A stretch of DNA of 47,457 nt from Candidatus Asbonarchaeum danakilense (GTDB lineage: Archaea > Nanohalarchaeota > Nanosalinia > Nanosalinales > Nanoanaerosalinaceae), in the NCBI GenBank assembly GCA_034190465.1, contig JAXINV010000060.1, positions 1 through 47,457 on the forward strand, read 5' to 3'. A program made the translations under genes and the position numbers. The first letter of the stretch is position 1, and every line of letters begins with the position of its first letter. Of this stretch, positions 23,247-38,180 are shown one piece after another. Below the pieces are notes generated by a model. The model had not been told where the DNA came from and did not search any database. It was given only the letters and a program-made list of their open reading frames with translations.

Positions 23247-26159
23247 TCACTCCAGAATGATCGCCGGCTTGCCGGGTCTGGCGCGCTCGGCCTTGTCGTG
23301 GCTGGAGACGTCCTCCGGCTCGATCTCGATGTCGGCGTCGAACCGGTCGGCGAGGAAGCCCTGCGCCTCCTCGAACACCTCGCTCTCTGCCTGCGTCGCC
23401 AGCACCTGGCCGGGCAGTTCGCCAGGGTTCTGCTTGTAGTCCTTCACCAGGCCGGACAGCTGGTCCGCGTACTCCCGGAGCTCGCTGTCGCCTGTCAGCT
23501 CGTCCATCAGCGCGCCGATGTCGATGTCACCGTGCTCGTCGAAGTATGTCTTGATCCGCCGCACGGCTTCGCGCTTCCAGTCCGCTGCCAGCGCGACGTG
23601 CACGGTGTCGTAGTCGCCGACCATGTCCTCGATCTCCTGGATGTCGTCGATCGTCGCCTTGAGCAGTTCCTCGCCGGCCTCGACCTCGTCGTCGATCGCG
23701 TCGGGGTCAACCTCGGGCCAGTCCGCCTCGGTGACCAGGCCGCGGTGCCCGGTCTCGTCCCAGAGCTGCTCGCAGAGGTGCGGGATGAACGGCGCCATCA
23801 TCCGGATCTGGGCGTCCAGCACCTCCTCGATGACGTCCTGGTTCAGGGTGTCGGCGCGCTGCCGGTACCAGTTGATCAGGTTGTTCAGCTCGAAGAACGC
23901 GTTGATGGAGGCCTTCCGCGTCTGGAAGTCCTCGAGCGCGTCCTCGGCGTTTTGGATCATGCGGTTGAGCCGGGAGCGGACGTACCGGTCGATCCTGGTC
24001 GGTTCGCGCTGCTCCCCGCTGCCGTACAGCTCCAGTGTCCGTTTGTGGAACCGCTGCAGCTTCTTCCGGTACTCGACGACCTCGTCCTCCCGCCAGTCGA
24101 AGTCCTGCCACGGCTCGCACGACGCGAACATGAAGAACCGGACCGTGTCCGCGCCGTAGTCCGCGATCGCGTTCTCCGGCAGGATGACGTGGCCCTTGGA
24201 CGATGACATCTTCTCGCCTTCCAGCAGGCCCATGCCCCAGGTCGCGATGCCCTGCGGCCAGTGCTTCTCGTCGAAGATCGCGGCGTGGTGGAACATGAAG
24301 AACGTGAGGTGGTTCTGGATCAGTTCGTTGGCGGAGGTCCGCCAGTCCAGCGGGTACCAGTACTCGAAGCTTTCCCTGGCCTCCTTCAGCGTCTCCTCGT
24401 CGACGCCGGTGCTGTCGACGACGTCCTCGACCGGTCCCTCGCCGCGGAACACGTAGTCGAAGAAGTCCTCGTTCAGCTGCTCCGGGTCGATGTCCTCGAT
24501 CAGGTGTTTGATCGTGTAGTATGCCATATAGATCGTGGAGTCGGACAGCGGCTCGACCTTGAACCGTTCGTCGAACGGCAGCTCGGTGCCCAGCCCGTAG
24601 TTCCGGATGCAGGGCCAGGATTCGAGCCAGTTGATGGTGTGCTCGTAGTCTTCCCGGGTGTTCGCCGGGATGGTGCGGAGCTGGTTCAGCACCTTGTCCG
24701 CCTTGTCCTTCCAGCCGCGGTCGCCGTAGGTCAGGAACCAGGTGTCGGCCTCCGCGACGATCACGCGGCCGCCGCACCGGCAGACCACGTCCTCGGAGAA
24801 GTCCCACATCTCGCCGAACTTGTTCTGGTTGGCGTAAAGCCGCTTCAGCTCTTCCTTCGCCTCGCTGATCGACTGGCCGGCGAACTCCTGGCAGTTGCTC
24901 TTCAGCCGTCCGGTGTGGTGCTCCTTCTTGTAGATCTCCTCGGTCGCCTCCTCCAACGCTTCTTCGTCGTCCTGGGAGGTGACACCGAACTCCTCGCATG
25001 CCTCTTTCGCCGGGAACTCGCCGTAGCCCTCGACGTCGATGATCGAGACCGGCTCGATGTCCTGGACCGTCGCGGGGTCGATGCCGTGCTCCTCGAGCAG
25101 TGCCTCGTTCTGCTTCAGGTCCTGGAGCGAGATCCAGTCGTACGGCGCGTGCGCCGGCACGGACATGACCACGCCGGTCGCTGACTCGGTGTCGACGAAC
25201 GTCGCTGGCAGCAGCATGATCTCGTCGCCGGTGACAGGGTTCATGACTTCCTCGCCGATGATCTCGTCGCCGGTGAACTCCCGCTCGATCTCGACGTCGT
25301 GCTCCTGGTGCTCGAGCTTCTCAGCTGCCGCGGCGGACACGATCCAGGTCTCGCCGCGCACCGATCGCTCCGCGTCGGTGCTCTTAGAAGCTCCAGCGGA
25401 GCTGCGAGCTTCGCCGTCGACTTCCACCTCGACGTAGTCGCCGTCAGGGTCGACGAGCGCGTGGGTGACGCCGTAGACGGTCTCCGGCCGCAGCGTCGCC
25501 ATGGGGAAGATCTTGTCGTCCTTGCGGAACCTGACGAGGGTGTACTCCTGCATGTCCGCGTCCTCGCCCTCGAGCAGGTCGTGGGTGGTGACGGGGTTGT
25601 CGTCGTCGAGGCAGTATTTGGTCGGGTGCTTGCCCTGCTCCAGGTAGCCGGCCTGCTTCAGCTTGCGGTACTGCCACTGGATGAACTTGCTGTACCGTTC
25701 GTCGTTGGTGGTGAACTCGCGGCGCCAGTCGACGCCGAAGCCGAGGTCCTGCATGTTCTTCTTGTAGCTGTTCTCGATGAAGTATTCGGCGAAGTCCATG
25801 GGCTCCTCCATCGCGTCGAGGTCCTCCTGCGGGACGTTGTAGACATCCTTGAGGACGTGCAGCTGCTCTTCCTCGCCCTTCTTCAGGCGGTTGAGCGCGC
25901 CGATGATCGGGGTGCCGGTGACGTGCCAGGCCATCGGGAACAGGACGTTGTAGCCCTGCATCTTCTTGAACCGGGCGAAGACGTCGGGCAGCGTGTAGGT
26001 GCCGACATGGCCGAGGTGCATGCCGCCGCTGGGGTAGGGATAGGCGACGGTGATGAAGAACTTGTCGCGTTCGTCGGGATCCGGCTGGAAGACCTCCTGC
26101 TCCTCCCAGGCGGCCTGCCATCTGTCTTCGAAGTCGTGCAGCTTGTCCTCGAAGCCCAT
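23247..26159 (-). CDS. leuS: Leucyl-tRNA synthetase (archaeal) with a 20-aa in-frame insertion
   Basis: PYPSGGMHLGH (HIGH), ATLRPET, TGVVMSVPAHAPYD (CP1 editing), KMSSSKG, ARPGKPAI. Confidence 0.97.
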   Translation of the reverse strand: MGFEDKLHDFEDRWQAAWEEQEVFQPDPDERDKFFITVAYPYPSGGMHLGHVGTYTLPDVFARFKKMQGYNVLFPMAWHVTGTPIIGALNRLKKGEEEQLHVLKDVYNVPQEDLDAMEEPMDFAEYFIENSYKKNMQDLGFGVDWRREFTTNDERYSKFIQWQYRKLKQAGYLEQGKHPTKYCLDDDNPVTTHDLLEGEDADMQEYTLVRFRKDDKIFPMATLRPETVYGVTHALVDPDGDYVEVEVDGEARSSAGASKSTDAERSVRGETWIVSAAAAEKLEHQEHDVEIEREFTGDEIIGEEVMNPVTGDEIMLLPATFVDTESATGVVMSVPAHAPYDWISLQDLKQNEALLEEHGIDPATVQDIEPVSIIDVEGYGEFPAKEACEEFGVTSQDDEEALEEATEEIYKKEHHTGRLKSNCQEFAGQSISEAKEELKRLYANQNKFGEMWDFSEDVVCRCGGRVIVAEADTWFLTYGDRGWKDKADKVLNQLRTIPANTREDYEHTINWLESWPCIRNYGLGTELPFDERFKVEPLSDSTIYMAYYTIKHLIEDIDPEQLNEDFFDYVFRGEGPVEDVVDSTGVDEETLKEARESFEYWYPLDWRTSANELIQNHLTFFMFHHAAIFDEKHWPQGIATWGMGLLEGEKMSSSKGHVILPENAIADYGADTVRFFMFASCEPWQDFDWREDEVVEYRKKLQRFHKRTLELYGSGEQREPTRIDRYVRSRLNRMIQNAEDALEDFQTRKASINAFFELNNLINWYRQRADTLNQDVIEEVLDAQIRMMAPFIPHLCEQLWDETGHRGLVTEADWPEVDPDAIDDEVEAGEELLKATIDDIQEIEDMVGDYDTVHVALAADWKREAVRRIKTYFDEHGDIDIGALMDELTGDSELREYADQLSGLVKDYKQNPGELPGQVLATQAESEVFEEAQGFLADRFDADIEIEPEDVSSHDKAERARPGKPAIILE
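25351..25416. mobile_element. 60-bp REP/MITE-like palindromic element inserted in frame in leuS, with 6-bp direct repeat TCGCCG
   Basis: TCGCCG at 25351-25356 and 25411-25416; two bulged hairpins with a GGA triloop in inverted orientation; removing 60 nt restores VDGETWIVS. Confidence 0.75.
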
Positions 26160-26331
26160 GACCGTACTGTTCGTCCGGGAACATTTAAGTCACCTTCCCG
26201 CCGAGGACTGTTCATTGAGGACGAACTCTCATGGACTGGTGCGGTCGAGCACAACCGTCTTTGATTATCTCGCGGTGGTAAAAATGCTAACGTTTTAAAG
26301 GCTGGGGCCGTAAGTAACATGACAGGTAGCT

Positions 26332-27096
26332 ATGACGCGACTCATCACTGTTTCCGGTGGCAAGGGAGGAGTTGGCAAGACAACCGTGACGAGCAACGTG
26401 GGTTCCGCGCTTTCTGAGTTCGGCCTGGATACGATGGTCATCGATGCGAACCTGACGAACCCGAACCTGGGGTTCCATCTCGGTATACCGCTCTACCCCA
26501 CCACGCTGCACGACGTGCTGCGTGATGAGGCGCATATCACCGAAGCGACCTACATCCACAATTCTGGGCTACGTGTCGTCCCTGCTGGTCTCTCGGTCGA
26601 GGATCTGCGCAACACGTCGCCGGAGAAGATTGATGAGGTGCTCGAGGATGTCATCGGCGAGCCGGAGTACGTTGTCATTGACTCCGCGGCCGGCCTGGGT
26701 AATGAATCTATCAATACTATCGAAGCGAGCGATGAACTTCTCATCGTCACCAACCCGAACCTGCCTGCGGTCACGGACGCGTTGAAGACGGCGAACATCG
26801 CCGAGGAAGCTGGGACGCACGTGCTCGGTGTCGTCCTCAATAGGAAGAACGACAACGAGGACGAGCTCAGCGCTGAGGAAGTCGAGGAGATGGTTGGCCA
26901 CCCGGTCGTGTCCGAGCTACCTGAACACGACGTGTTGCGGGAATCGGTGGCGAAGAAGACGCCTCTTGTCCATTACAAGCCGGACCATCACATGGCTGAA
27001 CGGTTCAAGGAGCTCGCGGCGGATGTCGCTGGCATCGACTACGAGCCGAAGAAGCGCGGTGTCGTCAGCCGCGTCAAGGAAGCGCTCGGCCTCTAG
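26332..27096 (+). CDS. minD: MinD-family ATPase
   Basis: SGGKGGVGKTT, IDANL, DSAAG, VTNP..PAVTDA. Confidence 0.93.
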   Translation: MTRLITVSGGKGGVGKTTVTSNVGSALSEFGLDTMVIDANLTNPNLGFHLGIPLYPTTLHDVLRDEAHITEATYIHNSGLRVVPAGLSVEDLRNTSPEKIDEVLEDVIGEPEYVVIDSAAGLGNESINTIEASDELLIVTNPNLPAVTDALKTANIAEEAGTHVLGVVLNRKNDNEDELSAEEVEEMVGHPVVSELPEHDVLRESVAKKTPLVHYKPDHHMAERFKELAADVAGIDYEPKKRGVVSRVKEALGL

Positions 27097-28745
27097 ACCA
27101 GGTCGTGAATCCTGTCCAGGTTGACTTCGAAGGCGGCGACCGGCATCTCCAGCGCGACGTTGTTCAGCACCGCGGGGTTGATCTCGCCGATCGTGCCGAC
27201 GCTGATACCGTCGATCAGAATCTCTGCGGTCCTGCCCTCGATGAACGTGGAGTGGTACTCCTTCTCGAACTCAGGCTCGACGCCGAGTGACTCGAACAGG
27301 CCCTCCGCCACCTTCTTGATTGTCGTGTAGTCGACGTCCTGGCCGGCGCGGACCGCTGCAAGGTGCCGGTCGGTGTGCGTCCTGTTCGGCTGGTCCTCGT
27401 CCTTCGTGATGACGTCCGCGGCTTCGAACACCTTCTGCGGGTACTCGTTGTGCGTGTTGTCCGCCAGCGTGTGCAGCATCTGCGGGAGCAGCATGTCCCG
27501 GCCGACCGTGTACTTGTCGGAGACCGGGTTCGCCAGCCGGATGAAGTCGTCGGAGTCCCGGTTCGCGTCGTGGTTCAGCGTCTCCTCGTCGGTCAGTGTC
27601 GGGTTCATGATCTCCTGGTATCCGAACCCTGTCATCAGGTCGCGGACGCTGTGCATGAAGTCCTCGACCGGGTCCGGCTCGCCGACGGTGGAGATGTTCG
27701 GCAGCTCGGGCTCGATGTTGTTGTAGCCGTAGCCGATGGCGACGTCCTCTGCGATGTCGACCTCGTGCAGGATGTCCGCACGATACGGCGGCACGACGAC
27801 CTCGAGCGTGTCGCCCAGCTCGACGACGCCGTAGCCCATCTTCTCCAGGTAGTCCCTGGCGCTGTCACGGTCCAGCTCGATGCCGGTGACCGCCTCGATC
27901 GCGTCCAGGTCGACCTGCATCTCGTCGGTGGAGAAGTCCGGTGTCGTGTACCGGTCGCCCGACTCGTGCATCTCGACACCGTAGATCTCGCCGCCACGCT
28001 CCGCGAGCGCGGTGACGATGACGTTGAGCGCGTAGTGCAACGACGTGGGGTCGGTCCCGGTCACGTCGATGAACAGGTCGCTTGACGCGGTCGTGACCTC
28101 GGTCCGACGCGCGTTGATGATTGGTGGGAAGCTGAGGACGTCGTCGTTGTCGTCGACGATCAGTGGCCACTTGTCGTGGCTCTCAACCAGTTCGCGGTAT
28201 TTCTTACCTTTCTCGTGGTCCTCGACGATCTCCTGCAGTGTCATCTTTTCATCCTGCTCCAGCGGGATGAAGCTGTACTCGTCGGGTGCGACGGCCTTGT
28301 ACGTCAGTGGGAAGTCGACCTCGGTCATGTCGTGGATGCCGATGGAGACACGCTCCCTGTCACGGCCGAACGTGCCGTGCAGCTTCTCCTGCAGCTGGAT
28401 GAGGGATTTGACCGCTGCGGTCCCGAGATCGACGTTCCTGACGACCGCGGTGACGACATGGGGCCGGACCGGGACATCGTCCACGGTGAACTGGTACGGA
28501 CCCTCATGAATCTCGTACTTCTGCAGGCCTGACTGCGTATCGCGGTACGTGCGGACGCTGCGCGCTATGCCTTCGACGCTGAGCAGGTCGATGCGGTCGG
28601 ATGTGACCTCGACCTCGACCCTGTCGTCGACGATCTCCTCGACCTCGACCTTGACCCGTGTGAGGACTTCCTCGAGTTCGCTGTCGCTCATCTCTTCGTC
28701 GATGAGGTCAAACAGGTCGTGCTTGTTGAACTCTATCGTCGGCAT
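27093..28745 (-). CDS. pheT: Phenylalanyl-tRNA synthetase beta subunit
   Basis: DRIDLLSVEGIAR, QEKLH, SFPPIINA, PPYRADILHEVDIAEDVAI. Confidence 0.96.
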   Translation of the reverse strand: MPTIEFNKHDLFDLIDEEMSDSELEEVLTRVKVEVEEIVDDRVEVEVTSDRIDLLSVEGIARSVRTYRDTQSGLQKYEIHEGPYQFTVDDVPVRPHVVTAVVRNVDLGTAAVKSLIQLQEKLHGTFGRDRERVSIGIHDMTEVDFPLTYKAVAPDEYSFIPLEQDEKMTLQEIVEDHEKGKKYRELVESHDKWPLIVDDNDDVLSFPPIINARRTEVTTASSDLFIDVTGTDPTSLHYALNVIVTALAERGGEIYGVEMHESGDRYTTPDFSTDEMQVDLDAIEAVTGIELDRDSARDYLEKMGYGVVELGDTLEVVVPPYRADILHEVDIAEDVAIGYGYNNIEPELPNISTVGEPDPVEDFMHSVRDLMTGFGYQEIMNPTLTDEETLNHDANRDSDDFIRLANPVSDKYTVGRDMLLPQMLHTLADNTHNEYPQKVFEAADVITKDEDQPNRTHTDRHLAAVRAGQDVDYTTIKKVAEGLFESLGVEPEFEKEYHSTFIEGRTAEILIDGISVGTIGEINPAVLNNVALEMPVAAFEVNLDRIHDLV

Positions 28746-28746
28746 G

Positions 28747-30273
28747 TCACATCACGTCCACGATCGGGCTCTTCCGCAGCTCCTGGATGTCCTGTGGGAA
28801 GAGCAGCTCCCTGATATCGTCTTTGCCGAGTTTGAACATGGCGATACGGTCGATGCCCATGCCCCACGCGATGACAGGATCATCCACGTCGAGCGGGTGC
28901 CGGACCTCGGGCCTGAACAGGCCTGCGCCGCCCAGCTCCACCCAGCCGAGCTCGGGGTGGTAGGCGTCGAGCTCGACTGAGGGCTCGGTGAACGGGAAGT
29001 AGCCCGGCCTGAACCGTATCTTCTCCGCGCCGGCGATCTCCTCGCCGAACAGTTTCAGGTAGCCGAGCAGGTCCTTGAGCGAGAGGTCTTCGGCCTTGAC
29101 GATGCCCTCGGCCTGGTTGAACTCGATGAAGTGGGTGGCGTCGATCTCGTCGTACCGGAAGACCCGGTCGATGGCGAACACCTTGGCCGGGGACTCAACG
29201 CCCTCTGCCAGGTGCCGGATCGTGGTCGCGGTGGTCTGGCTCCGCAGCATCAGCTTTGATGCCTGCTCCTTGCTCCATTCGTACTCCCACCCCTTGGATT
29301 CGATGTTCCAGCCGCCTTCGTGCATCTTCTTGACGCGCTCGACGATATCGTCGTGCATCAGGTCGCCCTGTGCCGGGTCCTCGAGCTCGAACTTGTCGTG
29401 GACCTCCCGTGCCGGGTGGTCCTGGGCCTGGAACAGGACGTCGAAGTTCCAGAACTCCATCTCGACGAGGTCGGTCTTGGCCTCGCGGAAGCCCATGGCG
29501 ATGAACTCGTCCCTGACGTTGTCCAAGTAGCTGCGGTACGGCTGCTTCTTGCCGGGCCGCTCACGCTCGACGTCGGCCTCGACGTTGTACTCGCGGATGC
29601 CGCGCTTCTTCCAGTCGCCGCTCCGGATGATCTCTGGGGTGAGCTTGCCGACCTTCTGCTGTTCGAGTTCTTCCTCGCGTTCCTCCTGTTCCTTCAGTTC
29701 GTGGTATTCTTTCCCGCCCTTGTCGGTGACGGTGAGGATGCGCCAGTTCTGTTCCTTCCGTTCGATGAGTCCGCGTTCCTGCAGGCGTTCCAGCAGCTCG
29801 TCCTCCACGTCGTCGCCGTGGAACCTGTCGGCGTCGGCGACGGCTTCGAGTACGTCCTCCTCTCTGAAGCCCTCGTCGAGCTTGTCGCGACCGTCGTCTG
29901 TGATCTGCAGCTTCTTGTAGCCGCCTTCTTCGATGATTTCCGCCCAGCCATGCTGCTTGCATTCGCCGAGCGCGATGTTGAACGGCCCGATCAGGTCCTG
30001 GAGCTGGTCCATGCGTTCGGGTCCGTCCTCGATCTCGCTGAGCAGCCGCTTTTCAGGCAGGCCGTTGATGTAGGCGTCCTCGCCGTCGCCGGTGATGACG
30101 TAGTGGACTTCGCTCTCCTCACCGATGTCGACGAGCATCGCGTCCTCGAGCCATTTCGCCGGCCGGATGACGGCTGCGTGCCCCATGTCTTCCTCGAGTT
30201 CGTCGACGCGGGCCTCGCCGTCCTCCTGCATCAACCGCTTCAGAAGCCGGGCTGCCCTGGGGTGGAGTTCCAT
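28747..30273 (-). CDS. pheS: Phenylalanyl-tRNA synthetase alpha subunit
   Basis: FWNFDVLFQAQDHPARE, RVFRYDEIDATH, GYFPFTEPS, GAGLFRPE, WGMGIDR. Confidence 0.97.
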   Translation of the reverse strand: MELHPRAARLLKRLMQEDGEARVDELEEDMGHAAVIRPAKWLEDAMLVDIGEESEVHYVITGDGEDAYINGLPEKRLLSEIEDGPERMDQLQDLIGPFNIALGECKQHGWAEIIEEGGYKKLQITDDGRDKLDEGFREEDVLEAVADADRFHGDDVEDELLERLQERGLIERKEQNWRILTVTDKGGKEYHELKEQEEREEELEQQKVGKLTPEIIRSGDWKKRGIREYNVEADVERERPGKKQPYRSYLDNVRDEFIAMGFREAKTDLVEMEFWNFDVLFQAQDHPAREVHDKFELEDPAQGDLMHDDIVERVKKMHEGGWNIESKGWEYEWSKEQASKLMLRSQTTATTIRHLAEGVESPAKVFAIDRVFRYDEIDATHFIEFNQAEGIVKAEDLSLKDLLGYLKLFGEEIAGAEKIRFRPGYFPFTEPSVELDAYHPELGWVELGGAGLFRPEVRHPLDVDDPVIAWGMGIDRIAMFKLGKDDIRELLFPQDIQELRKSPIVDVM

Positions 30274-30359
30274 GTGCACACCTTTGTGAGCAGCGTGTTT
30301 TTTTGTATCTTACACCGCCCCGCGGAAACAGGTTTAAAGCCCGGCGGGCATGGTGGGGC

Positions 30360-30929
30360 ATGTCGCTCGCGTCGGTGGTGGAGTGGACGCGGCAGACGTT
30401 CATGCCGCTGGGCCCGCTGGGCCTGTTCGTGCTGGCGTTCATCGAGTCGTCGTTTTTCCCGGTGCCGCCTGACGTGCTGCTGATCCCGCTGGTGCTGGCG
30501 TCGCCGCATCAGGCGCTGCTGCTGGCAGCGATCGCGACGGCGGGGTCGGTCACGGGCGCGATGTTCGGCTACGAGCTGGGGCGGCGCGGCGGCCGGCCGG
30601 TGTTGGAGCGCATGGTGTCGCAGCGGAACATTGATAGGGTGGAGGGCTACTACGACAGGTACGGGGCGCTGGCCGTCGGGTTTGCAGGGTTCTCGCCGGT
30701 GCCGTACAAGGTGTTCGCGGTGTCGTCGGGCACGTTCGAGATGGATCTGCCGACGTTCGTGACGGTTTCGACGCTGTCACGCGGTGCACGGTTCTTCGCT
30801 GAGGCGATCCTGTTCATGCTGTACGGCGAGGAGATCATGTCGTTCTTCGAGACGTACTTCGGCCCGCTGACGCTGGTCGCGGCCGGTCTCGCTGTCGCGG
30901 GCTACGTGGTCTGGAAGCAGTGGCTCTAG
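30360..30929 (+). CDS. YqaA/DedA (VTT domain) membrane protein
   Basis: AFIESSFFPVPPDVLL, FSPVPYKVF, SRGARF; ATG 22 nt after TTTAAA. Confidence 0.92.
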   Translation: MSLASVVEWTRQTFMPLGPLGLFVLAFIESSFFPVPPDVLLIPLVLASPHQALLLAAIATAGSVTGAMFGYELGRRGGRPVLERMVSQRNIDRVEGYYDRYGALAVGFAGFSPVPYKVFAVSSGTFEMDLPTFVTVSTLSRGARFFAEAILFMLYGEEIMSFFETYFGPLTLVAAGLAVAGYVVWKQWL

Positions 30930-32023
30930 GCCAGGTATTCGTCCAGCCGGTCCTTCGCCTGCTCCCGCTTCGCCTGGTGCTCTTCGAGGAACGTGGCGAG
31001 TTCGTCCTTGGCGATCTGCTTGAGCTCGCCTGACAGCATCTCGCCGCTGTCATACTTCCTGTATATCTCCTCAAGCCGCTCGTCGTCCTCGATGAGGTGG
31101 AAGGCGAGCAGCTCGAAGACCATGTCCTCCTCGACGTCGGCACCTTTCTCCCGGTGCTCGTCCAGGCTCTGCTGGCCGCCGGTCTTCGCCCGGTCGATCT
31201 TCTCCTTGGCGTCGTCGACGGAGTCGGTCAGCGCGATGTAGGACTTGGGGTCGCTGGACGACATCTTCCCGCCCTGCAGCCCGCGCATGAACTTGTGGTA
31301 GGTGGCGGCGGGCTTGATGAAGTCCTGGGACGGGTATCTGGAGGCGATGTCCCGTGTCAGCCGGATGTGCGGGTCCTGGTCGGTGCCGATCGGAACGACG
31401 GTCGGTTTGGGACCGCCGTTCTCCTCGAACTGGGGCTGGAGGATGTCGGCGACCTGTGTCAGGGCGGAGGTGGTCTTGCCGGGTGAGACGTCGCCGTAGA
31501 TGGCCTCGACCTCGCTCTGGGTGACGTGCCGTGAGAACTGTTTGGACATGGAGTGGTAGTGCGGTGTGCCTTCGGACTGGAAGTAGAAGTACAGGTTGTC
31601 GGGTTCCAGGCCGAGGGCGATGTAGTTAATGAGGTACTGGTCCAGTGCGATCTCCCGCGCCTCCTGGAGGTCGATGCCGCGTGTGGCGTAGGCCTCGAGG
31701 TCGGCGACGGCGACGTACAGGTCTGCGCCCTGTTCCTGGTAGTATGTCATCTGGTCGGCGACCATTTTGTGGCCGAAGTGGAAGGTGCCGGACGGCATCA
31801 ATCCTGTCATCATGGCGAAGTCGTCGCCGTCCGCGATCGCGTCGGCGACCGTGCCGAAGTCGCGCTGGCCGTAGACGATGTCACGCCGCATGTAGTGGTT
31901 GAGGTTGGGCAATTTGTCCTTGTGCTCGGCGAACGGGTCGATGCCGAACTTCTCCATCTTGTCGTCGTAGTCGCCGGCCTGGACGTCGCCCCACGGGTCA
32001 ATCCCTGCCTCGGTATCAGCCAT
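30926..32023 (-). CDS. trpS: Tryptophanyl-tRNA synthetase (archaeal)
   Basis: Start MADTE; IDPWG, TGLMPSGTFHFGH, GTDQDPHIRLTRD, KMSSS, AKTGG. Confidence 0.96.
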   Translation of the reverse strand: MADTEAGIDPWGDVQAGDYDDKMEKFGIDPFAEHKDKLPNLNHYMRRDIVYGQRDFGTVADAIADGDDFAMMTGLMPSGTFHFGHKMVADQMTYYQEQGADLYVAVADLEAYATRGIDLQEAREIALDQYLINYIALGLEPDNLYFYFQSEGTPHYHSMSKQFSRHVTQSEVEAIYGDVSPGKTTSALTQVADILQPQFEENGGPKPTVVPIGTDQDPHIRLTRDIASRYPSQDFIKPAATYHKFMRGLQGGKMSSSDPKSYIALTDSVDDAKEKIDRAKTGGQQSLDEHREKGADVEEDMVFELLAFHLIEDDERLEEIYRKYDSGEMLSGELKQIAKDELATFLEEHQAKREQAKDRLDEYLA

Positions 32024-32816
32024 GGTGACCACCTTGTTCCCGGACAGTTTTATATTCTGAGAGCGTGCCGGCCCGCTCCGCCGTATAGCCGAGCCTATCC
32101 TCGTATCCGTCGGTCGCGGTGAGGACGGGGTAGAACGGTTCCTCTGCGATGATTTCCTCGCCCCCGGCCGTTGCGAAGACCTCTCCCTCGGCCACCGGTT
32201 CGAAGTCCTGGCGGAGGAACTGCATGTCTTCCCGTCGCTCGATCTCGCCTGTGATTCGGTAGACCTCGGGGTCGGATGCCGGTACAGCTCCTCCATCACT
32301 GCAGGCGTCAAGCACGTTCTGCAGGATCGCTACCCCGTTCTCGACGGCTTTGTCCGTCCCGCGGCGGCCGCATTCGACCGATATGCCCGGCACGTGCTGG
32401 ATCAGGCCGCCTGACTCGTAGCCGATGTCGATGACCCGTTCCAGCCCGGTGGCCCTGCAGAACGTGGGTGTCTGCGGGCCATCCCCTGCGATGACGCAGA
32501 AGGGCTGGTCGGTCGACGGCGTGGTGTGCAGATCGATGACAGGGGCCCTGACGGCCTTGAGGATGGCGGCGGCCAGCCGCCGTTCGTGGGCGTCCCCGCT
32601 ACGGTCGCCGGGGAACGCCCGGTTCAGATCGGTATCGATGTATCGCACGCCTTCCTCGACGGCTTCCTGGTTCGCCTCGATGTACTGGACGGTCGGATCC
32701 CTGTCGTGGTCGTTGAGAACGCTACGTGCTGCTTCCCTCCCTCCGGTCTCGTCGCCGTGCAGGCAACTGACGACACAGAGATCGGGCGCCCCGTCCCCGA
32801 TGATCTCGCTGTGCAT
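32016..32816 (-). CDS. AstE/AspA-family (M14-like) zinc deacylase, copy 1
   Basis: HGDE, DLNRAFPG, DLHTT, VECG, FYPVL; 3' end overlaps the trpS start. Confidence 0.9.
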   Translation of the reverse strand: MHSEIIGDGAPDLCVVSCLHGDETGGREAARSVLNDHDRDPTVQYIEANQEAVEEGVRYIDTDLNRAFPGDRSGDAHERRLAAAILKAVRAPVIDLHTTPSTDQPFCVIAGDGPQTPTFCRATGLERVIDIGYESGGLIQHVPGISVECGRRGTDKAVENGVAILQNVLDACSDGGAVPASDPEVYRITGEIERREDMQFLRQDFEPVAEGEVFATAGGEEIIAEEPFYPVLTATDGYEDRLGYTAERAGTLSEYKTVREQGGHHG

Positions 32817-33715
32817 CACAGTCCCTCCAGGCTCTGCCTGAACTCCTGTTTGAACGCTGCCTCGTCGATCCTGGTCACGACGGAGGTCGTTGGCTCAGCC
32901 GTGACGTAGTCACGTTCTTCCTGGACCAGCATGCCCCGGGTGTGCTCTCCCCCGGTCTCGACGACGATGTCATGTTCGTCGGTCTCAATGTGTTCGGGGT
33001 AGGCGGCAGCGAAGGCGGCGATCGCGTCGTAGACCAGCGCCCCCTCGACATCGAGATGTTCCCTGAGACGACGGATGAACGGATCGAGGAGGCTGACGAG
33101 CTCGTTTCTGATACTGCAGTCTTCAGGGATCGTTGCCGGCTTGAGGATGATGTCGTTGCATGGTCCAAGCGGGACCAGTGTCGTGTCGAGTTCCGACCCG
33201 ATCACTGTGGCGGCTGCCTCCGGATCGACGTACATGTTGAACTCGGCGACCCGGTTCTGGTTGCCCGGACTTTCGAGGGCGCCCCCCATGGAGACGATCC
33301 GATCTGCGTTCCGCATCTGGTCTGGATACGTTCCGAGGGCGCGTGCGATGTTGGTGAGGGGGCCGAGCGTGATGATGGTCGCTCCCCTATCTGCGGCGTC
33401 TGCCAGCTGGTCGATGGCATCCGCTCCGGCCGGCAACGGGTCGATCCGGCTGTCCATCCCGTCGAGACCGTCCTCACCGTGGACGGTCGCTGTCGTGAGT
33501 TCTCGTTCCATCGGCCGGTCGCTGCCCTGGTGGAGGGGGACGCCGCTGCGTCCCGCCATACGCAGCACACGGCCTGCATTCCGTGTCGTCGCCTCTACGC
33601 GGGCGTTGCCGGCAACGGTCGTCACTGATTCGACGTCGATCCTGTTGCTTCCGAGGGCGAGCAGGAGTGCGAGTGCGTCGTCATGGCCGGGGTCGGTGTC
33701 GATCACAGCGTGCAT
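32816..33715 (-). CDS. Nucleoside hydrolase (IUNH family)
   Basis: DTDPGHDD, TTVAGN, HGEDGL, LGPLTNIA, MGGA, AEFNMYVDPEAA; VYDA in place of the usual V/LHD. Confidence 0.92.
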   Translation of the reverse strand: MHAVIDTDPGHDDALALLLALGSNRIDVESVTTVAGNARVEATTRNAGRVLRMAGRSGVPLHQGSDRPMERELTTATVHGEDGLDGMDSRIDPLPAGADAIDQLADAADRGATIITLGPLTNIARALGTYPDQMRNADRIVSMGGALESPGNQNRVAEFNMYVDPEAAATVIGSELDTTLVPLGPCNDIILKPATIPEDCSIRNELVSLLDPFIRRLREHLDVEGALVYDAIAAFAAAYPEHIETDEHDIVVETGGEHTRGMLVQEERDYVTAEPTTSVVTRIDEAAFKQEFRQSLEGL

Positions 33716-34302
33716 CCGATCACCCCCGTGAGGGTCTCCGCGGCCGCATCCGCCTCGATATGGTGGGCGTCCATCCCCATCGAAGCGGCGACCGCGGTGT
33801 TCTCTTCCTCGTCGTCGACGTAGACTGCCGCTTCGGGGCTGTACGGCGCCTGCCTGATGAAGAACGTGAACGCCTCCTCCTGGGGTTTCGGGACGGGAAG
33901 GGAGGAGGCACCGATGATTGATGCTGCCTCCCGCCCCTGTCTGTCCAGGTACAGCTCCACGAGGCGCTCGCTGTTGTTGGTGAGCACGTCAACCCTGTAT
34001 CCCTCGTCCTGGAACGCATCGATGATGCGGGAGCGGTCGGTCTGTGCCGCGACCTCGCAGACTGCAGGGTAGACGGTCTCTGCGAACCTGTGCCGCGGGA
34101 TGTCTTTCGCTTCGAGGAACATCTGCGTGGTGGTGTACCGCCGGTTCCTGACGGCACGGCGCGCTTCCCTGAAGATCCTCTCCGGATTTTCTCGCCCCAT
34201 GTCCCGAAGGAGGTCGAGGACCGCCTCTTGGAAGGCCTCATAGGCTGAATCCCTGTCACGGTACAGTGTGCCATCGAAGTCCAGGACCACGGCCTCTGTC
34301 AC
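33703..34302 (-). CDS. HAD-superfamily hydrolase (putative nucleotidase)
   Basis: Motif I DFDGTL, motif II LTNN, motif III KP, motif IV VDD...N; GTGA overlap with the upstream gene. Confidence 0.88.
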   Translation of the reverse strand: MTEAVVLDFDGTLYRDRDSAYEAFQEAVLDLLRDMGRENPERIFREARRAVRNRRYTTTQMFLEAKDIPRHRFAETVYPAVCEVAAQTDRSRIIDAFQDEGYRVDVLTNNSERLVELYLDRQGREAASIIGASSLPVPKPQEEAFTFFIRQAPYSPEAAVYVDDEEENTAVAASMGMDAHHIEADAAAETLTGVIGCTL

Positions 34303-35504
34303 TGTTTCTCCCTCTGTGAGACGGCACTTGCCTGTTTTGCGTTCTCGTACGGCCTGCCGGATTCGAGGACCTCGATGGCGCGTTCCGTCCCTTCGTCGAG
34401 CGGGGTGCCGTCATCCAGGTAGTACAGCAGTGCGGCGTTGGCGGCGATCAGGTCACGGGCACCGTTTTCGACCTCGCCGCGGAGGATGGCCTCACCGAGC
34501 TCGGGCTTGGTCATCTCGTACGCGCCGGGATCGATTTCCTCGTAGTCGACGGGTTCCAGGCCAAAGTCGCCGGCCTCAAGATCGTAGGTCGTGATCTCGC
34601 CGTCCTGAAGTTCTGCTACGGTGGATCCACCCTCCATGACGGAGGCCTCATCTATCCCACTGTCCGCTCCAGGCTCGACGAAGCCGCGGACCGCGATGAG
34701 GTGGTCCGTCGCGGTAATCCCGCGTTCGTTGAGTTCCCGGTATGCCTCGGCGACGGTCTGTGGGTCCATCAGGTGGTTGACACCGACCACCCGCCTGCTG
34801 TGCGTGGCCGGATGCAGGGGGTTGGTGATGGGGCCGATGATGTCGTTCATGTGCGGCAGGTCGGCGTGTTCGTGGGTCTGCCGGTGGATGTCCTTGTAGT
34901 CGGTGTTGAGGGCCTCTGAGTAGCCGAAACCTGTCTGCTCAACACCCGCCTCCGTCAGCTCCTGATCGGTCATCAGGTCGAACCCGAGGTGTTCGAGGAA
35001 GTCGCTGCTGCCGGTGCTGTCTGTGTTGCCGGGCGAGCCGTGCTTGCACATCTTGATGCCGTCGGCCGCGACGGTGAGGGCGGCCAGTGTGGAGACGTTC
35101 GGCGTCCGGTACATGTCGCCGCCCATCCCACAGTTGTCCATGGCGTTCCCGGCGTCCGGCGCTATCGTGCTGTCCTCGCCGATGTCGTACTCGAAGATTG
35201 CTGCTGTCACACCTGCGATCTGCTCGGCCGCCCCATCATGGCTGTAGAGTTCCTGGTCATGCAGGACGGAAAGCGCAGTCAGGCTCTGGTACCGGGCCTC
35301 TTCCCGGTTCTGGTCGAAGACATCCTCGAGCTCGTTGTTCCCCAGTCCGTAGAGGGTCTGGCAGCCGAGGAGATAGGCGTCCTCGAACCCGAACGGTTCG
35401 TCGATGTAGCCGTGTTCCTTGAGAAGTGTTTTGGTCTCGTACTGGTCAGCCTTGCGGCTGAGTTCTTCCGGAGCGTACTGCCGCTCCTGTCCAAAAACAT
35501 CCAC
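34299..35504 (-). CDS. Divergent anthranilate phosphoribosyltransferase (TrpD)-like protein
   Basis: DNCGMGGD, PNVST, KHGS, GSSDFLEHLG, GPITNP, GIDE, ANAALL; GTG start uncertain (see findings). Confidence 0.85.
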   Translation of the reverse strand: MDVFGQERQYAPEELSRKADQYETKTLLKEHGYIDEPFGFEDAYLLGCQTLYGLGNNELEDVFDQNREEARYQSLTALSVLHDQELYSHDGAAEQIAGVTAAIFEYDIGEDSTIAPDAGNAMDNCGMGGDMYRTPNVSTLAALTVAADGIKMCKHGSPGNTDSTGSSDFLEHLGFDLMTDQELTEAGVEQTGFGYSEALNTDYKDIHRQTHEHADLPHMNDIIGPITNPLHPATHSRRVVGVNHLMDPQTVAEAYRELNERGITATDHLIAVRGFVEPGADSGIDEASVMEGGSTVAELQDGEITTYDLEAGDFGLEPVDYEEIDPGAYEMTKPELGEAILRGEVENGARDLIAANAALLYYLDDGTPLDEGTERAIEVLESGRPYENAKQASAVSQREKQ

Positions 35505-35841
35505 CCTTGTCAGGGTCTGGCGTAGTTGTCATCTGAAACACCGGGAAGAACAATGTTCGGCCCGATTTAAATACTTTCCGGAGCAATGAGGCTTTTAAAG
35601 CGGCATAGAAACGTCTATCGGAGCCTTTGATTCATGTGGGGTGTATAGCTGCCGGAGAAAGAACTTCGCTGCCATGCCTTCCTCATTATGGCTGCGATAC
35701 GGAACAATGCGGTGCGGGCTGTGGTATCGATCCCGCGGAGAAGAGCGACTAGGTCGATCAGGTCATGCCCGTACGGGCCAAACACGTCCACCCTGTCGCT
35801 GCATGGGAACGAGTCCGCGGCGCAGGGTTAAAAATATTGCC

Positions 35842-36618
35842 CTACAGCTCCGAGGTCCTGCCGAGCTTCTCTGCCTTGAAGCCGAGGATGTTCTCGTAGC
35901 CCTTGTTGGACATGAGGACGGGGTAGAAGGTCTCTTCGGCGGTGATCTCGTCGCCTTCGATGGTGGCGAACGATTCGCCCGGGCTGACTTTTTCGAAGTT
36001 GGTGCCGACGAACTCCATGCCGTCCAGCCGGTCGACCTGGTCGAAGACATTGAACACGACCGGGTCGCTCCGCTCTGCGTCGCCTTCCAGCGCTCCAAGG
36101 TTCCGGAGGAACGTTGTGATGACGTCGTAGGCATTCTCTGCGGCCTGTTTGGTTCCCTTCCTACCGCACTCGACGCAGGTGCCGTTGTAGTAGGCGTCCA
36201 GTGCGCCGTCGAGCAGGCTGTTGTCGACCGTGTACTCCAGCCCTGTCGCCCTGACAACGTCGGCGACCGGCCCTGTCGGGTTGGAGAAGATGGCGAACGG
36301 CACGTCGCTCGAGACGGTGGAGTGCAGGTCGAGCACAGTCGTACCGACGACCTCCTTCAGCAGCTCGGCGGCGAGCTGTTCCTCGTGGTCGCTGCTGTTG
36401 GGATCGCCGGGCGCGACACGGTTGAGGTCGCTGTCCACGTACCGCTGCCCTTTCTCGTATGCTTCCTCGTTCGCGTAGACGAACTTGACGCCTTTCTGGA
36501 AGTCCCTGTCCTCCTCTAGCAGCCTGTCAACCGCTTCCTTGCCGCAGACCTCGTCGCCGTGGACGAGGGTGATGATGGCGATCTCAGGCTGGCCTGGTCC
36601 GCGTGTCTCGACGCGCAT
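35842..36618 (-). CDS. AstE/AspA-family zinc deacylase, copy 2
   Basis: Start MRVET; HGDE, DLNRVAPG, DLHST, VECG, FYPVL. Confidence 0.9.
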   Translation of the reverse strand: MRVETRGPGQPEIAIITLVHGDEVCGKEAVDRLLEEDRDFQKGVKFVYANEEAYEKGQRYVDSDLNRVAPGDPNSSDHEEQLAAELLKEVVGTTVLDLHSTVSSDVPFAIFSNPTGPVADVVRATGLEYTVDNSLLDGALDAYYNGTCVECGRKGTKQAAENAYDVITTFLRNLGALEGDAERSDPVVFNVFDQVDRLDGMEFVGTNFEKVSPGESFATIEGDEITAEETFYPVLMSNKGYENILGFKAEKLGRTSEL

Positions 36619-36643
36619 GGTGTACCCGGCATGCCGGAGCACA

Positions 36644-36651
36644 TTTTAAAA
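36644..36651. promoter_or_regulatory. Palindromic TATA box shared by the divergent aspA-like gene and glyS
   Basis: TTTTAAAA lies ~25 nt from ATG 36618 (-) and ~24 nt from ATG 36675 (+). Confidence 0.6.
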
Positions 36652-36674
36652 ATCTCTGCCCCGGTGTGGTGCAC

Positions 36675-38180
36675 ATGTCTGACGAGTACTCGGAGCAGCT
36701 GATCTCGCACGTCGTCCAAAACGGGTTCATCTGGGGGCCGGAGCCGGAGATCTACAACGGCCTCTCGGGGTTCTACACGTACGGACCCATGGGCAAGCTG
36801 CTGAAGAACAAGGTCGAGGACGTGATGCGGGACGTGTTCCGGGGCGACCACTTCTACGAGGTCGAGGCGCCGATAATCATGCCGGAGAAGGTCTGGGACG
36901 CGTCAGGCCACCTGGAGACGTTCGTCGACCCGATGGTGCTGTGCTCGCAGTGCTCCGGGAGCTTCCGCGCGGACAAGCTGATCGAGGAGGAGACGGAGAT
37001 TGAGACCGCTGACGGCTTCAGCGATGAGAAGCTGCTCAGCGTGATCGACGAGGAGGATATCCACTGTCCGTCGTGCGGCGGCGTGTTCAAGGACGAGGTC
37101 CATGACTACAACCTGATGATGCAGACCGAGGTCGCGGGCCAGGAGTCGTACAACCGGCCGGAGACTGCGACGACGACGTATCTACCGTTCCGCCGGTACT
37201 GGCGGTTCTTCCGGAAGCAGATGCCGATCAAGGTGTTCCAGATTGGGAAGGCGTTCCGCAATGAGGTCTCGCCCAGGCAGCACGTGCTGCGCGGCCGGGA
37301 GTTCACCCAGGCGGAGGGCCAGATCTTCGTGACGCCGGAGATGAAGGATGACTGGGACGAGTACGATGATATCAAGGACAACGAGCTGCCGCTGTGGACG
37401 GCGGCGATGCAGCAGGACGATGACGACTGGGACGAGTTGACGATCGAGGAAGCCAGGCAAGATGGCATCCTGACGTCTGACGCCTATGCGTGGTGCGTCG
37501 ACGTTGCGTACGATCTTTTCACGTCGGTCGGCATCCCTGAGGACAGGATTCGGCTGCGGGAGCACACTGAGGATGAGAAGGCGCACTATGCGAAGGATGC
37601 GTGGGACGTGGAGATCCGGCTGGACAGTTTCGGCTGGACGGAGGTCTGCGGTGTCCACGACCGGACGGACTACGACCTGAAGCAGCACCAGGAGCACTCC
37701 AGTGAGAGCATGACGGTGCGGAACAGTGACGGCGAGGAGGTGATCCCGCACATCCTGGAGATCGCGTTCGGGACGGACAGACCGGTCTTCGCGCTTCTTG
37801 ATATCTTCTTCGACGCGGATGATGAGGAGCTGCACATCCCGAAGCACGTCGCCCCGCTGGACGCTGCGGTGTTCCCGCTGGTCAGCAAGGAGGGGCTGCC
37901 CGGGATCGCGGAGGAGATCTACCGCCAGCTCCATGAGCAGAAGTTCGACGTGGAGTACGACGATTCGGGCAGCATCGGGAAGCGGTACGCCCGGAACGAT
38001 GCCAAGGGCACGGCGATCTGTATCACGGTGGACTTCGACACGAAGGACGACGACACGGTGACGATGCGGGACCGGAACAGTGAGGAGCAGGTCCGGGCGG
38101 AGATCGAGGACCTCGGCGACAAACTGGAGCGGTGGCTGTACACGGACATGGAGTTCGAGGACCTTGGCGAACCGGTCTAG
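36675..38180 (+). CDS. glyS: Glycyl-tRNA synthetase (alpha2 type)
   Basis: EIYNG..GFYTYGPMG, ASGHL..FVDP, RPETA, QIGKAFRNEVSPRQ..REFTQAE, AHYA, SIGKRYAR. Confidence 0.96.
   Translation: MSDEYSEQLISHVVQNGFIWGPEPEIYNGLSGFYTYGPMGKLLKNKVEDVMRDVFRGDHFYEVEAPIIMPEKVWDASGHLETFVDPMVLCSQCSGSFRADKLIEEETEIETADGFSDEKLLSVIDEEDIHCPSCGGVFKDEVHDYNLMMQTEVAGQESYNRPETATTTYLPFRRYWRFFRKQMPIKVFQIGKAFRNEVSPRQHVLRGREFTQAEGQIFVTPEMKDDWDEYDDIKDNELPLWTAAMQQDDDDWDELTIEEARQDGILTSDAYAWCVDVAYDLFTSVGIPEDRIRLREHTEDEKAHYAKDAWDVEIRLDSFGWTEVCGVHDRTDYDLKQHQEHSSESMTVRNSDGEEVIPHILEIAFGTDRPVFALLDIFFDADDEELHIPKHVAPLDAAVFPLVSKEGLPGIAEEIYRQLHEQKFDVEYDDSGSIGKRYARNDAKGTAICITVDFDTKDDDTVTMRDRNSEEQVRAEIEDLGDKLERWLYTDMEFEDLGEPV

Follow-up and report, generated by a model that had tools for sequence, protein, structure and literature searches.

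What does an enzyme built like TrpD do in an archaeon that shows no canonical tryptophan pathway, and why does its gene stand in front of trpS? The question is raised by a gene block on contig JAXINV010000060.1 of Candidatus Asbonarchaeum danakilense (assembly GCA_034190465.1), a nanohaloarchaeon with a genome of 1.2 Mb that is 92% complete; the whole stretch analyzed, 47,457 nt, is called the window. The block comprises a TrpD-derived phosphoribosyltransferase-fold enzyme (PRTase), a HAD phosphatase, a nucleoside hydrolase of the inosine-uridine (IU) family, and an AstE/AspA-family Zn deacylase, followed by trpS and preceded by a second AstE copy (Table 1). An earlier note on this DNA had described five overlapping minus-strand genes, and all of them were found where it placed them, with overlaps of 4, 13, 4, and 8 nt in order from the PRTase to trpS. 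That description did not include the upstream AstE, two tryptophan leader elements, or the lack of tryptophan in the enzymes. Three bacterial tryptophan sensors, an archaeal tryptophan leader, linkage to tRNA-Trp, and tryptophan-free proteins together indicated that the operon is very probably tied to tryptophan shortage. The block thus exists as described, with a more specific role than the note had proposed, and the literature searched yielded no system that matches it.

The TrpD-Like Enzyme and Its Family

The PRTase carried the motifs DNCGMGGD (position 123), NVST (136), KHGS (154), GSSD (165), NTDYKDIHRQTH (200), and GIDE (283); these motifs and the family assignments were found as the earlier note had given them. 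The features for binding phosphoribosyl pyrophosphate (PRPP) and Mg (GTGGD loop, NxST, KH, GS, and DE) are kept, with Thr changed to Met in the first loop. The structural model (predicted local distance difference test score 92) showed the two-domain fold of anthranilate phosphoribosyltransferase (AnPRT), and all listed Foldseek matches were AnPRTs, the best at an E-value of 2e-21 and a template modeling score of 0.85 by target. Against the TrpD profile TIGR01245 the PRTase scored 153 bits, below the curated cut-off of 199. The AMP phosphorylase and nucleoside phosphorylase II (NP-II) profiles gave ~15 bits, with cut-offs of 435 and 535, and no entry of either kind was present among 25 PDB sequence matches. 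The core fold is common to these phosphorylases and the PRTase, which at 401 aa contains PF00591 as its only Pfam domain and lacks the C-terminal hammerhead domain. PRK07394 and PRK09071, which we take to be YbiB-like, scored 16–18 bits. TrpD2/YbiB has the same fold and has been described as a DNA-binding protein without the PRPP motif (PMC9835598), a motif that the PRTase family keeps.

In AnPRT, the carboxylate of anthranilate is reported to be held by an Arg of helix 8 and the Asn of KHGN (PMC9835598). In the sequence alignment, the equivalents of these residues (Arg193 and Asn138) were His211 and Ser157 throughout subfamilies A and B of the PRTase family. Both subfamilies share Lys204, His207, Asn220, and Asn243, and position 197 is acidic in both; the PRTase carries ~60 residues beyond AnPRT. 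By alignment, these residues face the substrate channel, where they could bind an amino-acid zwitterion.

The PRTase had 490 homologs, and a score gap set its family apart from ordinary TrpD. The named homologs in the best 120 belonged to DPANN archaea or the Candidate Phyla Radiation (CPR), except one labeled "bacterium." Subfamily B was discovered via locus L083. In a quick tree with 31 subfamily A rows and without YbiB or phosphorylase outgroups, A and B clustered away from canonical TrpD with 99% support in the Shimodaira–Hasegawa-like approximate likelihood ratio test. The family was present in 2 of 70 nanohaloarchaea (a third match was canonical TrpD); subfamily A was found in 2 of 301 sampled CPR genomes, one of which was the search center, and subfamily B in 4 of 401. 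No longer fused forms were found at an E-value of 1e-45, which is weak evidence, and phage records gave only 12 matches, all weak and partial.

By the tests run, the PRTase falls outside TrpD, TrpD2, and NP-II, although its mode of action is probably that of a TrpD-type transferase. It shares with TrpD the fold, the PRPP/Mg motifs, and trp-type regulation, and differs in the exchanged anthranilate ligands, the new invariant residues, the extra length, and its own clade. The claim that it is not an ordinary TrpD was upheld. It founds an unnamed family of DPANN archaea and CPR bacteria.

Absence of the Canonical Tryptophan Pathway

No TrpA, TrpB, TrpB2, TrpC, TrpE, or TrpF was detected by tblastn in the whole genome that contains the window, and the TrpB and TrpC profiles were also negative; the absence of tryptophan biosynthesis genes noted earlier thus extends to the genome. 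TrpB was matched in 2 of the 50 subfamily A carrier genomes searched (of 76 loci) and in none of four subfamily B genomes, and TrpC gave one weak partial match in the 50. The positive controls were matched in 14 of 14 cases, and the carrier genomes are incomplete. Unlike TrpD, the PRTase is found in carriers nearly all of which yielded no trpE, trpC, or trpB.

PRPP synthetase was matched in 17 of the 50 subfamily A carrier genomes. It was present in 10 of 38 carriers that we ourselves assigned to the CPR type, compared with 63 of 201 baseline genomes and with all nine CPR genomes that have an ordinary TrpD (four confirmed by motif, five accepted on score and context). This lack of enrichment lends some support to the earlier suggestion that the enzyme runs in the PRPP-making direction. 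The window genome has a PRPP synthetase match with one stop within the matched stretch.

Tryptophan-Free Enzymes and the Archaeal Leader

The five block enzymes (PRTase, HAD, hydrolase, and two AstE) contained no tryptophan in 1,424 residues, where 13.9 would be expected at the genome frequency of 0.97%; their contents of Tyr, Phe, His, Cys, and Met were normal. The block was the longest run of tryptophan-free genes among 908 called genes. Among single genes of comparable length, ~15% lack tryptophan, so that by our arithmetic five in a row would occur with a probability of ~7e-5. Bias against the cognate amino acid has been described as a mark of tryptophan-pathway enzymes (PMC4209129), and the canonical trp enzymes in the loci examined were also depleted in tryptophan.

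Two upstream open reading frames (uORFs), leaders 1 and 2, precede the PRTase, and each holds one copy of a 15-nt motif. No other copies exist in the genome of the window, and three were found in the leader of a trp operon in another nanohaloarchaeon, G037. A pattern derived from the window and G037 copies occurred in 33 of 70 nanohaloarchaea (reversed control, 5), and 47 copies were then examined. An ATG lay within 15 codons in 41 of the 47 when the Gly-Gly-x-Phe/Val-Trp frame was read, and the two alternative frames gave 6 and 2; some copies read Val-Trp rather than Phe-Trp. The +1 frame opened an ORF of at least 90 codons in 16 copies (0 and 1 in the other frames). In 22 of the 47, the open +1 frame encoded a conserved peptide ending in Trp, after a linker of varying length, and its third codon positions varied while the second were fixed, which indicated conservation at the amino-acid level. 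Several short +1 ORFs ended on or beside the start codon of trpB or trpS.

The Phe-Trp codons of leader 2 (35491–35496) are the candidate site at which ribosomes would shift +1 to enter the PRTase frame, and the same layout was found in locus L010. The simplest reading of these patterns is that the leader would act through +1 slippage where the hungry codon is that for Trp, and a slow A-site codon after a slippery codon has been reported to drive +1 frameshifting (PMC5009743). Going by the reading frames, the PRTase may truly start at 35532 via the frameshift, and its annotated start is probably wrong. Initiation at a GTG inside the leader motif is a possible alternative.

The slot controlled by this leader also holds trpS, TrpB (in G040 and G045), GNAT, a GCS2-type ligase, and a protein of the inositol monophosphatase family; the GNAT and GCS2-type ligase, which are amine-tagging enzymes, sit there next to AstE. 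Genes in the +1 frame were located at L236:1770–2495, L228:1502–2914, L227:630–1514, L220:1812–2183, L222:1836–2171, and L230:1502–1879, and their types were GNAT, GCS2-type ligase, inositol monophosphatase family, and proteins of 96–158 aa without a Pfam match. The two-part leader (window 35446–35804, minus strand) was also observed in L213–L242 and L094, and its +1 peptide may be an arrest peptide.

Tryptophan Control in Bacterial Carriers

Tandem-Trp uORFs were located before 15 of 51 subfamily A PRTase genes vs. 7 of 227 other genes, four of which head PRTase operons; the count includes at least one false case (L010, the wrong frame of the frameshift motif). The 11 CPR leaders that were folded formed hairpins followed by U-runs, resembling terminators, and the tandem-Trp uORFs of Woesearchaeota loci mostly lacked terminator hairpins. 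A second, long hairpin with a shared CCAGCAC end is found in CPR leaders; it lies between the attenuator terminator and the PRTase start in L017, L015, L013, L016, L037, L032, and L075.

In subfamily B, a T-box core preceded 27 of 51 genes vs. 4 of 155 others, and 58 operons had one overall. UGG was present in the specifier region of 42 of 49 non-duplicate leaders with a recognizable stem II; the specifier was located by anchoring on stem II, a looser rule than a stricter parse that recovered 8 of 58, and the chance under the looser rule is estimated at roughly 0.3. With the Rfam model RF00230, 1 of 14 leaders scored above the gathering score, and in another set 12 of 14 matched at E-values up to 1e-4 but below it. 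In the CPR T-boxes of L096, L100, L103, L111, L115, and L167, stem I is very short and a loop carries UGG; these, too, fell below the gathering score. The window leader gave no T-box match. Operator-like sites for TrpR, scanned with a consensus that we assume to be correct, were found in 3 of 75 subfamily A loci, all among the six with trpR.

Gene Neighborhood and Partner Enzymes

The neighborhood comprised 155 loci, 75 from subfamily A (window included; five duplicate or control loci dropped) and 80 from subfamily B. The commonest genes were BtpA/SgcQ (118 loci) and tryptophanyl-tRNA synthetase (TrpRS)-type genes (75, of which 53 had a clear Trp motif, 1 was Tyr, and 21 were unclassified), followed by HAD (31), PfkB (25), M20 (23), chorismate-mutase/methyltransferase fusions (23), decarboxylases dependent on pyridoxal phosphate (PLP; 21), Cof (19), low-molecular-weight (LMW) phosphatase (18), nucleoside hydrolase (17), AstE (16), APH-type kinase (15), GNAT (14), DMT-type transporters (13), and TrpR (11); SLOG was also among the neighbors. 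tRNA-Trp was found in 36 loci, and the next commonest tRNA in 8.

Leaving out loci cut off at their ends, 113 loci had BtpA only, 12 (10 clusters) the nucleoside hydrolase only, five both, and four neither. BtpA was not found in the four hydrolase-only genomes searched, the genome of the window included, and HAD was present in 6 of 12 hydrolase-only vs. 22 of 113 BtpA-only loci. Thus, BtpA/SgcQ is the usual partner, and the nucleoside hydrolase substitutes for it in the window. The earlier note had described a trpS-coupled set of HAD, hydrolase, and deacylase; the coupling to trpS proved to be the key point, and the commonest partner is none of these three but BtpA/SgcQ. Such a near-obligate partner can plausibly remove ribose or ribose phosphate. 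Fusions of PRTase with HAD (L143), BtpA with HAD, and LMW phosphatase with PRTase were observed. A fold search with BtpA returned a generic TIM barrel with many tied matches (Z 16–19) that indicated no function, and its sequence match to TrpA was limited to the phosphate-binding end.

The nucleoside hydrolase keeps the ribose/Ca motifs of the IU family (DxDxGxDD, HG, ExN, xD). In its VYDA motif at residue 228, Tyr replaces the general-acid His preceding the last Asp, as the earlier note had observed. This Tyr occurred in 7 of 7 aligned PRTase-linked hydrolases, and it was shared by 4 of 4 nanohaloarchaeal hydrolases whose genomes lack the PRTase, which ruled it out as a mark of a special substrate and reduced its weight. 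Both AstE copies carry the HxxE, NR, H, and catalytic E motifs of AstE/AspA Zn deacylases, whose roles we take to be the usual ones.

The order PRTase-HAD-hydrolase-AstE was repeated in L010 of the nanohaloarchaeon G004, where it occupies the same slot before trpS, and in the distant locus L167, so the cluster is conserved. In G003, a genome of the same genus, and likewise in G007, glyS stands next to trpS and no upstream AstE is present, which suggested that the five enzymes were inserted before trpS or were lost in these two genomes. In G037 a complete trp operon takes this slot, with an AstE homolog between it and trpS, and in G090 TrpB2 is found between rnj and trpS. The G037 operon (L094:4400–12238, contig C22) has an extra 210-aa ORF between trpA and trpD. 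The trpS of the window was the only TrpRS found in its genome (a single strong tblastn match). A tRNA-Trp gene was not found in that genome, and the gap probably reflects an intron or an assembly gap.

Table 1. Location and characteristics of the block genes, the leader elements, and the flanking gene in the window.
Feature	Position	Strand	Characteristics
trpS	30926..32023	-	365 aa; NCBIfam TrpRS above cut-off; overlapped by deacylase gene
AstE/AspA-family Zn deacylase, downstream copy	32016..32819	-	267 aa, 0 Trp; PF24827 and motifs
IU-family nucleoside hydrolase	32816..33715	-	299 aa, 0 Trp; PF01156; takes the place of BtpA/SgcQ
HAD phosphatase, candidate ribotide 5'-phosphatase	33703..34302	-	199 aa, 0 Trp; HAD family match
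TrpD-derived phosphoribosyltransferase-fold enzyme	34299..35504	-	401 aa, 0 Trp; PF00591
Leader 2 uORF	35446..35532	-	28 codons; motif copy 35491-35505
TATA-like box	35565..35573	-	~30 nt before leader 2 start codon; promoter predicted from sequence
Leader 1 +1 frame	35615..35791	-	58 codons; conserved Trp-ending peptide at 35672-35698
Leader 1 uORF	35763..35804	-	13 codons, one Trp codon; motif copy 35778-35792
AstE/AspA-family Zn deacylase, upstream copy	35842..36618	-	258 aa, 0 Trp; PF24827; HGDE, LNR, DLH, ECG motifs
glyS (presumed from sequence features), divergent flank	36675..38180	+	adjoins trpS directly in relatives without the block

The block lies in a cluster of aminoacyl-tRNA synthetase-like genes (window 23247–38180), presumably for Leu, Phe (alpha and beta), Trp, and Gly, which is syntenic in G003 and G007; a VTT/DedA gene is located at 30303–30929. 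Elsewhere, a TrpRS-type protein fused to YbaK-type tRNA-editing and tRNA-binding domains directly follows PRTase-BtpA (L162:8099–9967), which suggests mischarging of tRNA-Trp, and long TrpRS-type ORFs were also seen in L163, L164, L166, and L173. The PLP decarboxylase and the chorismate-mutase/methyltransferase fusion recurred by trpS and tRNA-Trp (L035:4250–5695, L018:4355–5500, and relatives); they contain 1.1–1.5% Trp without depletion and may thus be a separate module. Asp/Glu-racemase-family and enolase-type epimerase genes, with a peptidase or AstE, lie near PRTase-BtpA in L043:10992–12741 and L126:9093–11744, a hint of D-amino-acid handling.

Proposed Function and Rival Explanations

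We tentatively propose, with rather less than even confidence, that the block supplies tryptophan without tryptophan synthase, by tagging and releasing a compound that already bears the tryptophan skeleton. When charged tRNA-Trp is scarce, ribosomes would slip +1 at the Phe-Trp codons of the leader, as its conservation suggests; the PRTase would then be translated, and HAD, hydrolase, deacylase, and TrpRS would follow by overlap coupling. The PRTase would move 5-phosphoribosyl between PRPP/pyrophosphate and a nitrogen of tryptophan or a close derivative, with the amino-acid side chain held by the invariant Lys204 and the acidic residue 197, and with His211 replacing the anthranilate Arg. HAD would dephosphorylate the ribotide and the hydrolase would free the amino acid, a release that BtpA/SgcQ may perform in one step elsewhere. 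The AstE enzymes might liberate tryptophan from N-acyl forms, and the product would feed the co-expressed TrpRS. The expectation of chemistry on a ribotide or riboside was counted as supported. Each of the four regions read from free-living bacteria and a haloarchaeon placed BtpA with a sugar kinase and an ABC transporter, and phosphatase plus APH-kinase neighbors resemble ribulosamine deglycation; both would fit a step in which an amine is freed from a sugar phosphate. Storage of tryptophan was rejected as the purpose, because an enzyme that is induced by shortage and consumes tryptophan would deepen the shortage.

Several observations weigh against this proposal. Tagging followed by release is futile unless the tagged form is external, transported, or altered while tagged, and HAD plus hydrolase could instead provide ribose. 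The direction of the reaction is pulled both ways: the phosphatase fusions favor the forward (tagging) direction and fit the reverse badly, whereas the missing PRPP synthetase favors the reverse and its lack of enrichment in carriers fits the forward badly. Neither AstE nor the hydrolase is specific, since 51 of the 70 nanohaloarchaea have AstE homologs and 11 have hydrolases. The loci are not independent (154 PRTases form 141 clusters at 90%), and all were picked for the PRTase. Moreover, L130:5343–11983 combines a T-box, LMW phosphatase, PRTase, trpC, trpB, trpA, BtpA, and HAD, and the stretch at hand holds no trpF, trpE, or trpG.

This last locus speaks for a divergent but genuine TrpD, with BtpA as TrpF and the later steps supplied by unrecognized genes or the host. 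The nearest family and fold are indeed AnPRT, and the regulation resembles that of trp operons. However, both anthranilate ligands are replaced in the two subfamilies, the score and the clade are not those of TrpD, TrpB and TrpC are nearly always missing, the window genome shows no BtpA, and PRPP synthetase accompanies the ordinary CPR TrpD in every case but the PRTase family in only 10 of 38. We therefore consider a genuine TrpD quite unlikely. It is improbable, though less so, that the enzyme rebuilds the ring from kynurenine, whose aryl amine would be ribosylated as TrpD does with anthranilate; after an Amadori rearrangement and ring closure at the ketone, ribose C1 would serve as the missing indole C2, and tryptophan and 4-phosphoerythronate would be set free, while the deacylases would strip N-formyl or N-acyl groups. 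Such a route retains TrpD chemistry, and its substrate without an ortho-carboxylate matches the changes of Arg to His and Asn to Ser, given the ligands described for AnPRT (PMC9835598). It makes TrpB dispensable and induction by shortage natural, its equation balances by our arithmetic, and BtpA is a phosphate-binding TIM barrel, a class that includes Amadori isomerases. Yet the window genome and three other hydrolase-only carriers show no BtpA, several chemistries are demanded of one or two enzymes, PRPP synthetase is not enriched, and a hydrolase with intact ribose motifs would reverse the first step unless it merely supplies ribose.

Protection of TrpRS from a tryptophan analog or inhibitor is a further reading: uncharged tRNA-Trp would induce tagging, and the release enzymes would rescue mis-tagged tryptophan. 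The GNAT, methyltransferase-fusion, PLP decarboxylase, and DMT-type transporter neighbors, the TrpRS-editing fusion of L162, and phosphatase fusions that would yield an exportable riboside are in line with it. TrpR control, however, responds to free tryptophan, the slot is otherwise occupied by biosynthetic or salvage genes, the release partner is nearly obligate, and two clear TrpRS copies were found in only two loci; we regard protection as unlikely. The purpose favored in the earlier note, generic salvage acting on modified bases or nucleotides or the making of PRPP from host nucleotides, would leave trpS as a chance neighbor; it agrees with the nucleotide-type neighbors (HAD, hydrolase, PfkB, and SLOG) and with carriers that often lack PRPP synthetase. 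It leaves four tryptophan sensors, the tRNA-Trp linkage, and the tryptophan-free proteins unexplained, all of which point to tryptophan shortage; the AMP phosphorylase profile matches poorly and the window genome has a PRPP synthetase match. Generic salvage is thus highly improbable. The boldest reading for DPANN and CPR symbionts would be that they make tryptophan by a synthase-free route, in which a re-purposed TrpD ribosylates kynurenine or another compound with the tryptophan skeleton, BtpA/SgcQ or a nucleoside hydrolase completes it, and in nanohaloarchaea a tryptophan-sensing frameshift switches it on and builds the N-terminus of the enzyme. We hold this full combination to be doubtful.

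Comparison with Known Systems and Implications

Stand-alone TrpB/TrpB2 salvage of tryptophan and the kynurenine salvage of chlamydiae are induced by shortage in reduced organisms and need TrpB; the window block is in the same genomic slot as TrpB, yet is found without it. Clusters of BtpA/SgcQ for sugar conjugates share with the PRTase loci the kinase, BtpA, and deacylase-type neighbors (a deacylase or amidohydrolase in three of four plasmid regions), but no TrpD-like gene is listed in those four regions. Related leader systems are trpL attenuation and TnaC. What the nanohaloarchaeal leader has in common with prfB-type or hungry-codon +1 frameshifting is a slippery codon followed by a slowly read codon in the A site (PMC5009743). 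It differs in that it would sense tryptophan, is archaeal, and includes a conserved peptide in the +1 frame with Trp as its last residue. The archaeal tryptophan regulators named in one account are the DNA-binding proteins TrpY and Tar (PMC6737238). A literature search that left most subscription journals outside its coverage found no paper on tryptophan frameshifting in nanohaloarchaea, on TrpD with DPANN, on tryptophan attenuation in Patescibacteria, or assigning BtpA/SgcQ a reaction.

Tryptophan is the costliest amino acid, and these results bear on its acquisition by CPR and DPANN symbionts with reduced genomes, through a small gene set that several independent regulators tie to it. If the proposal is true, the TrpD scaffold would gain a new reaction and the widespread BtpA/SgcQ family a first handle, and the leader would extend the sensing of amino acids at the level of translation to archaea.

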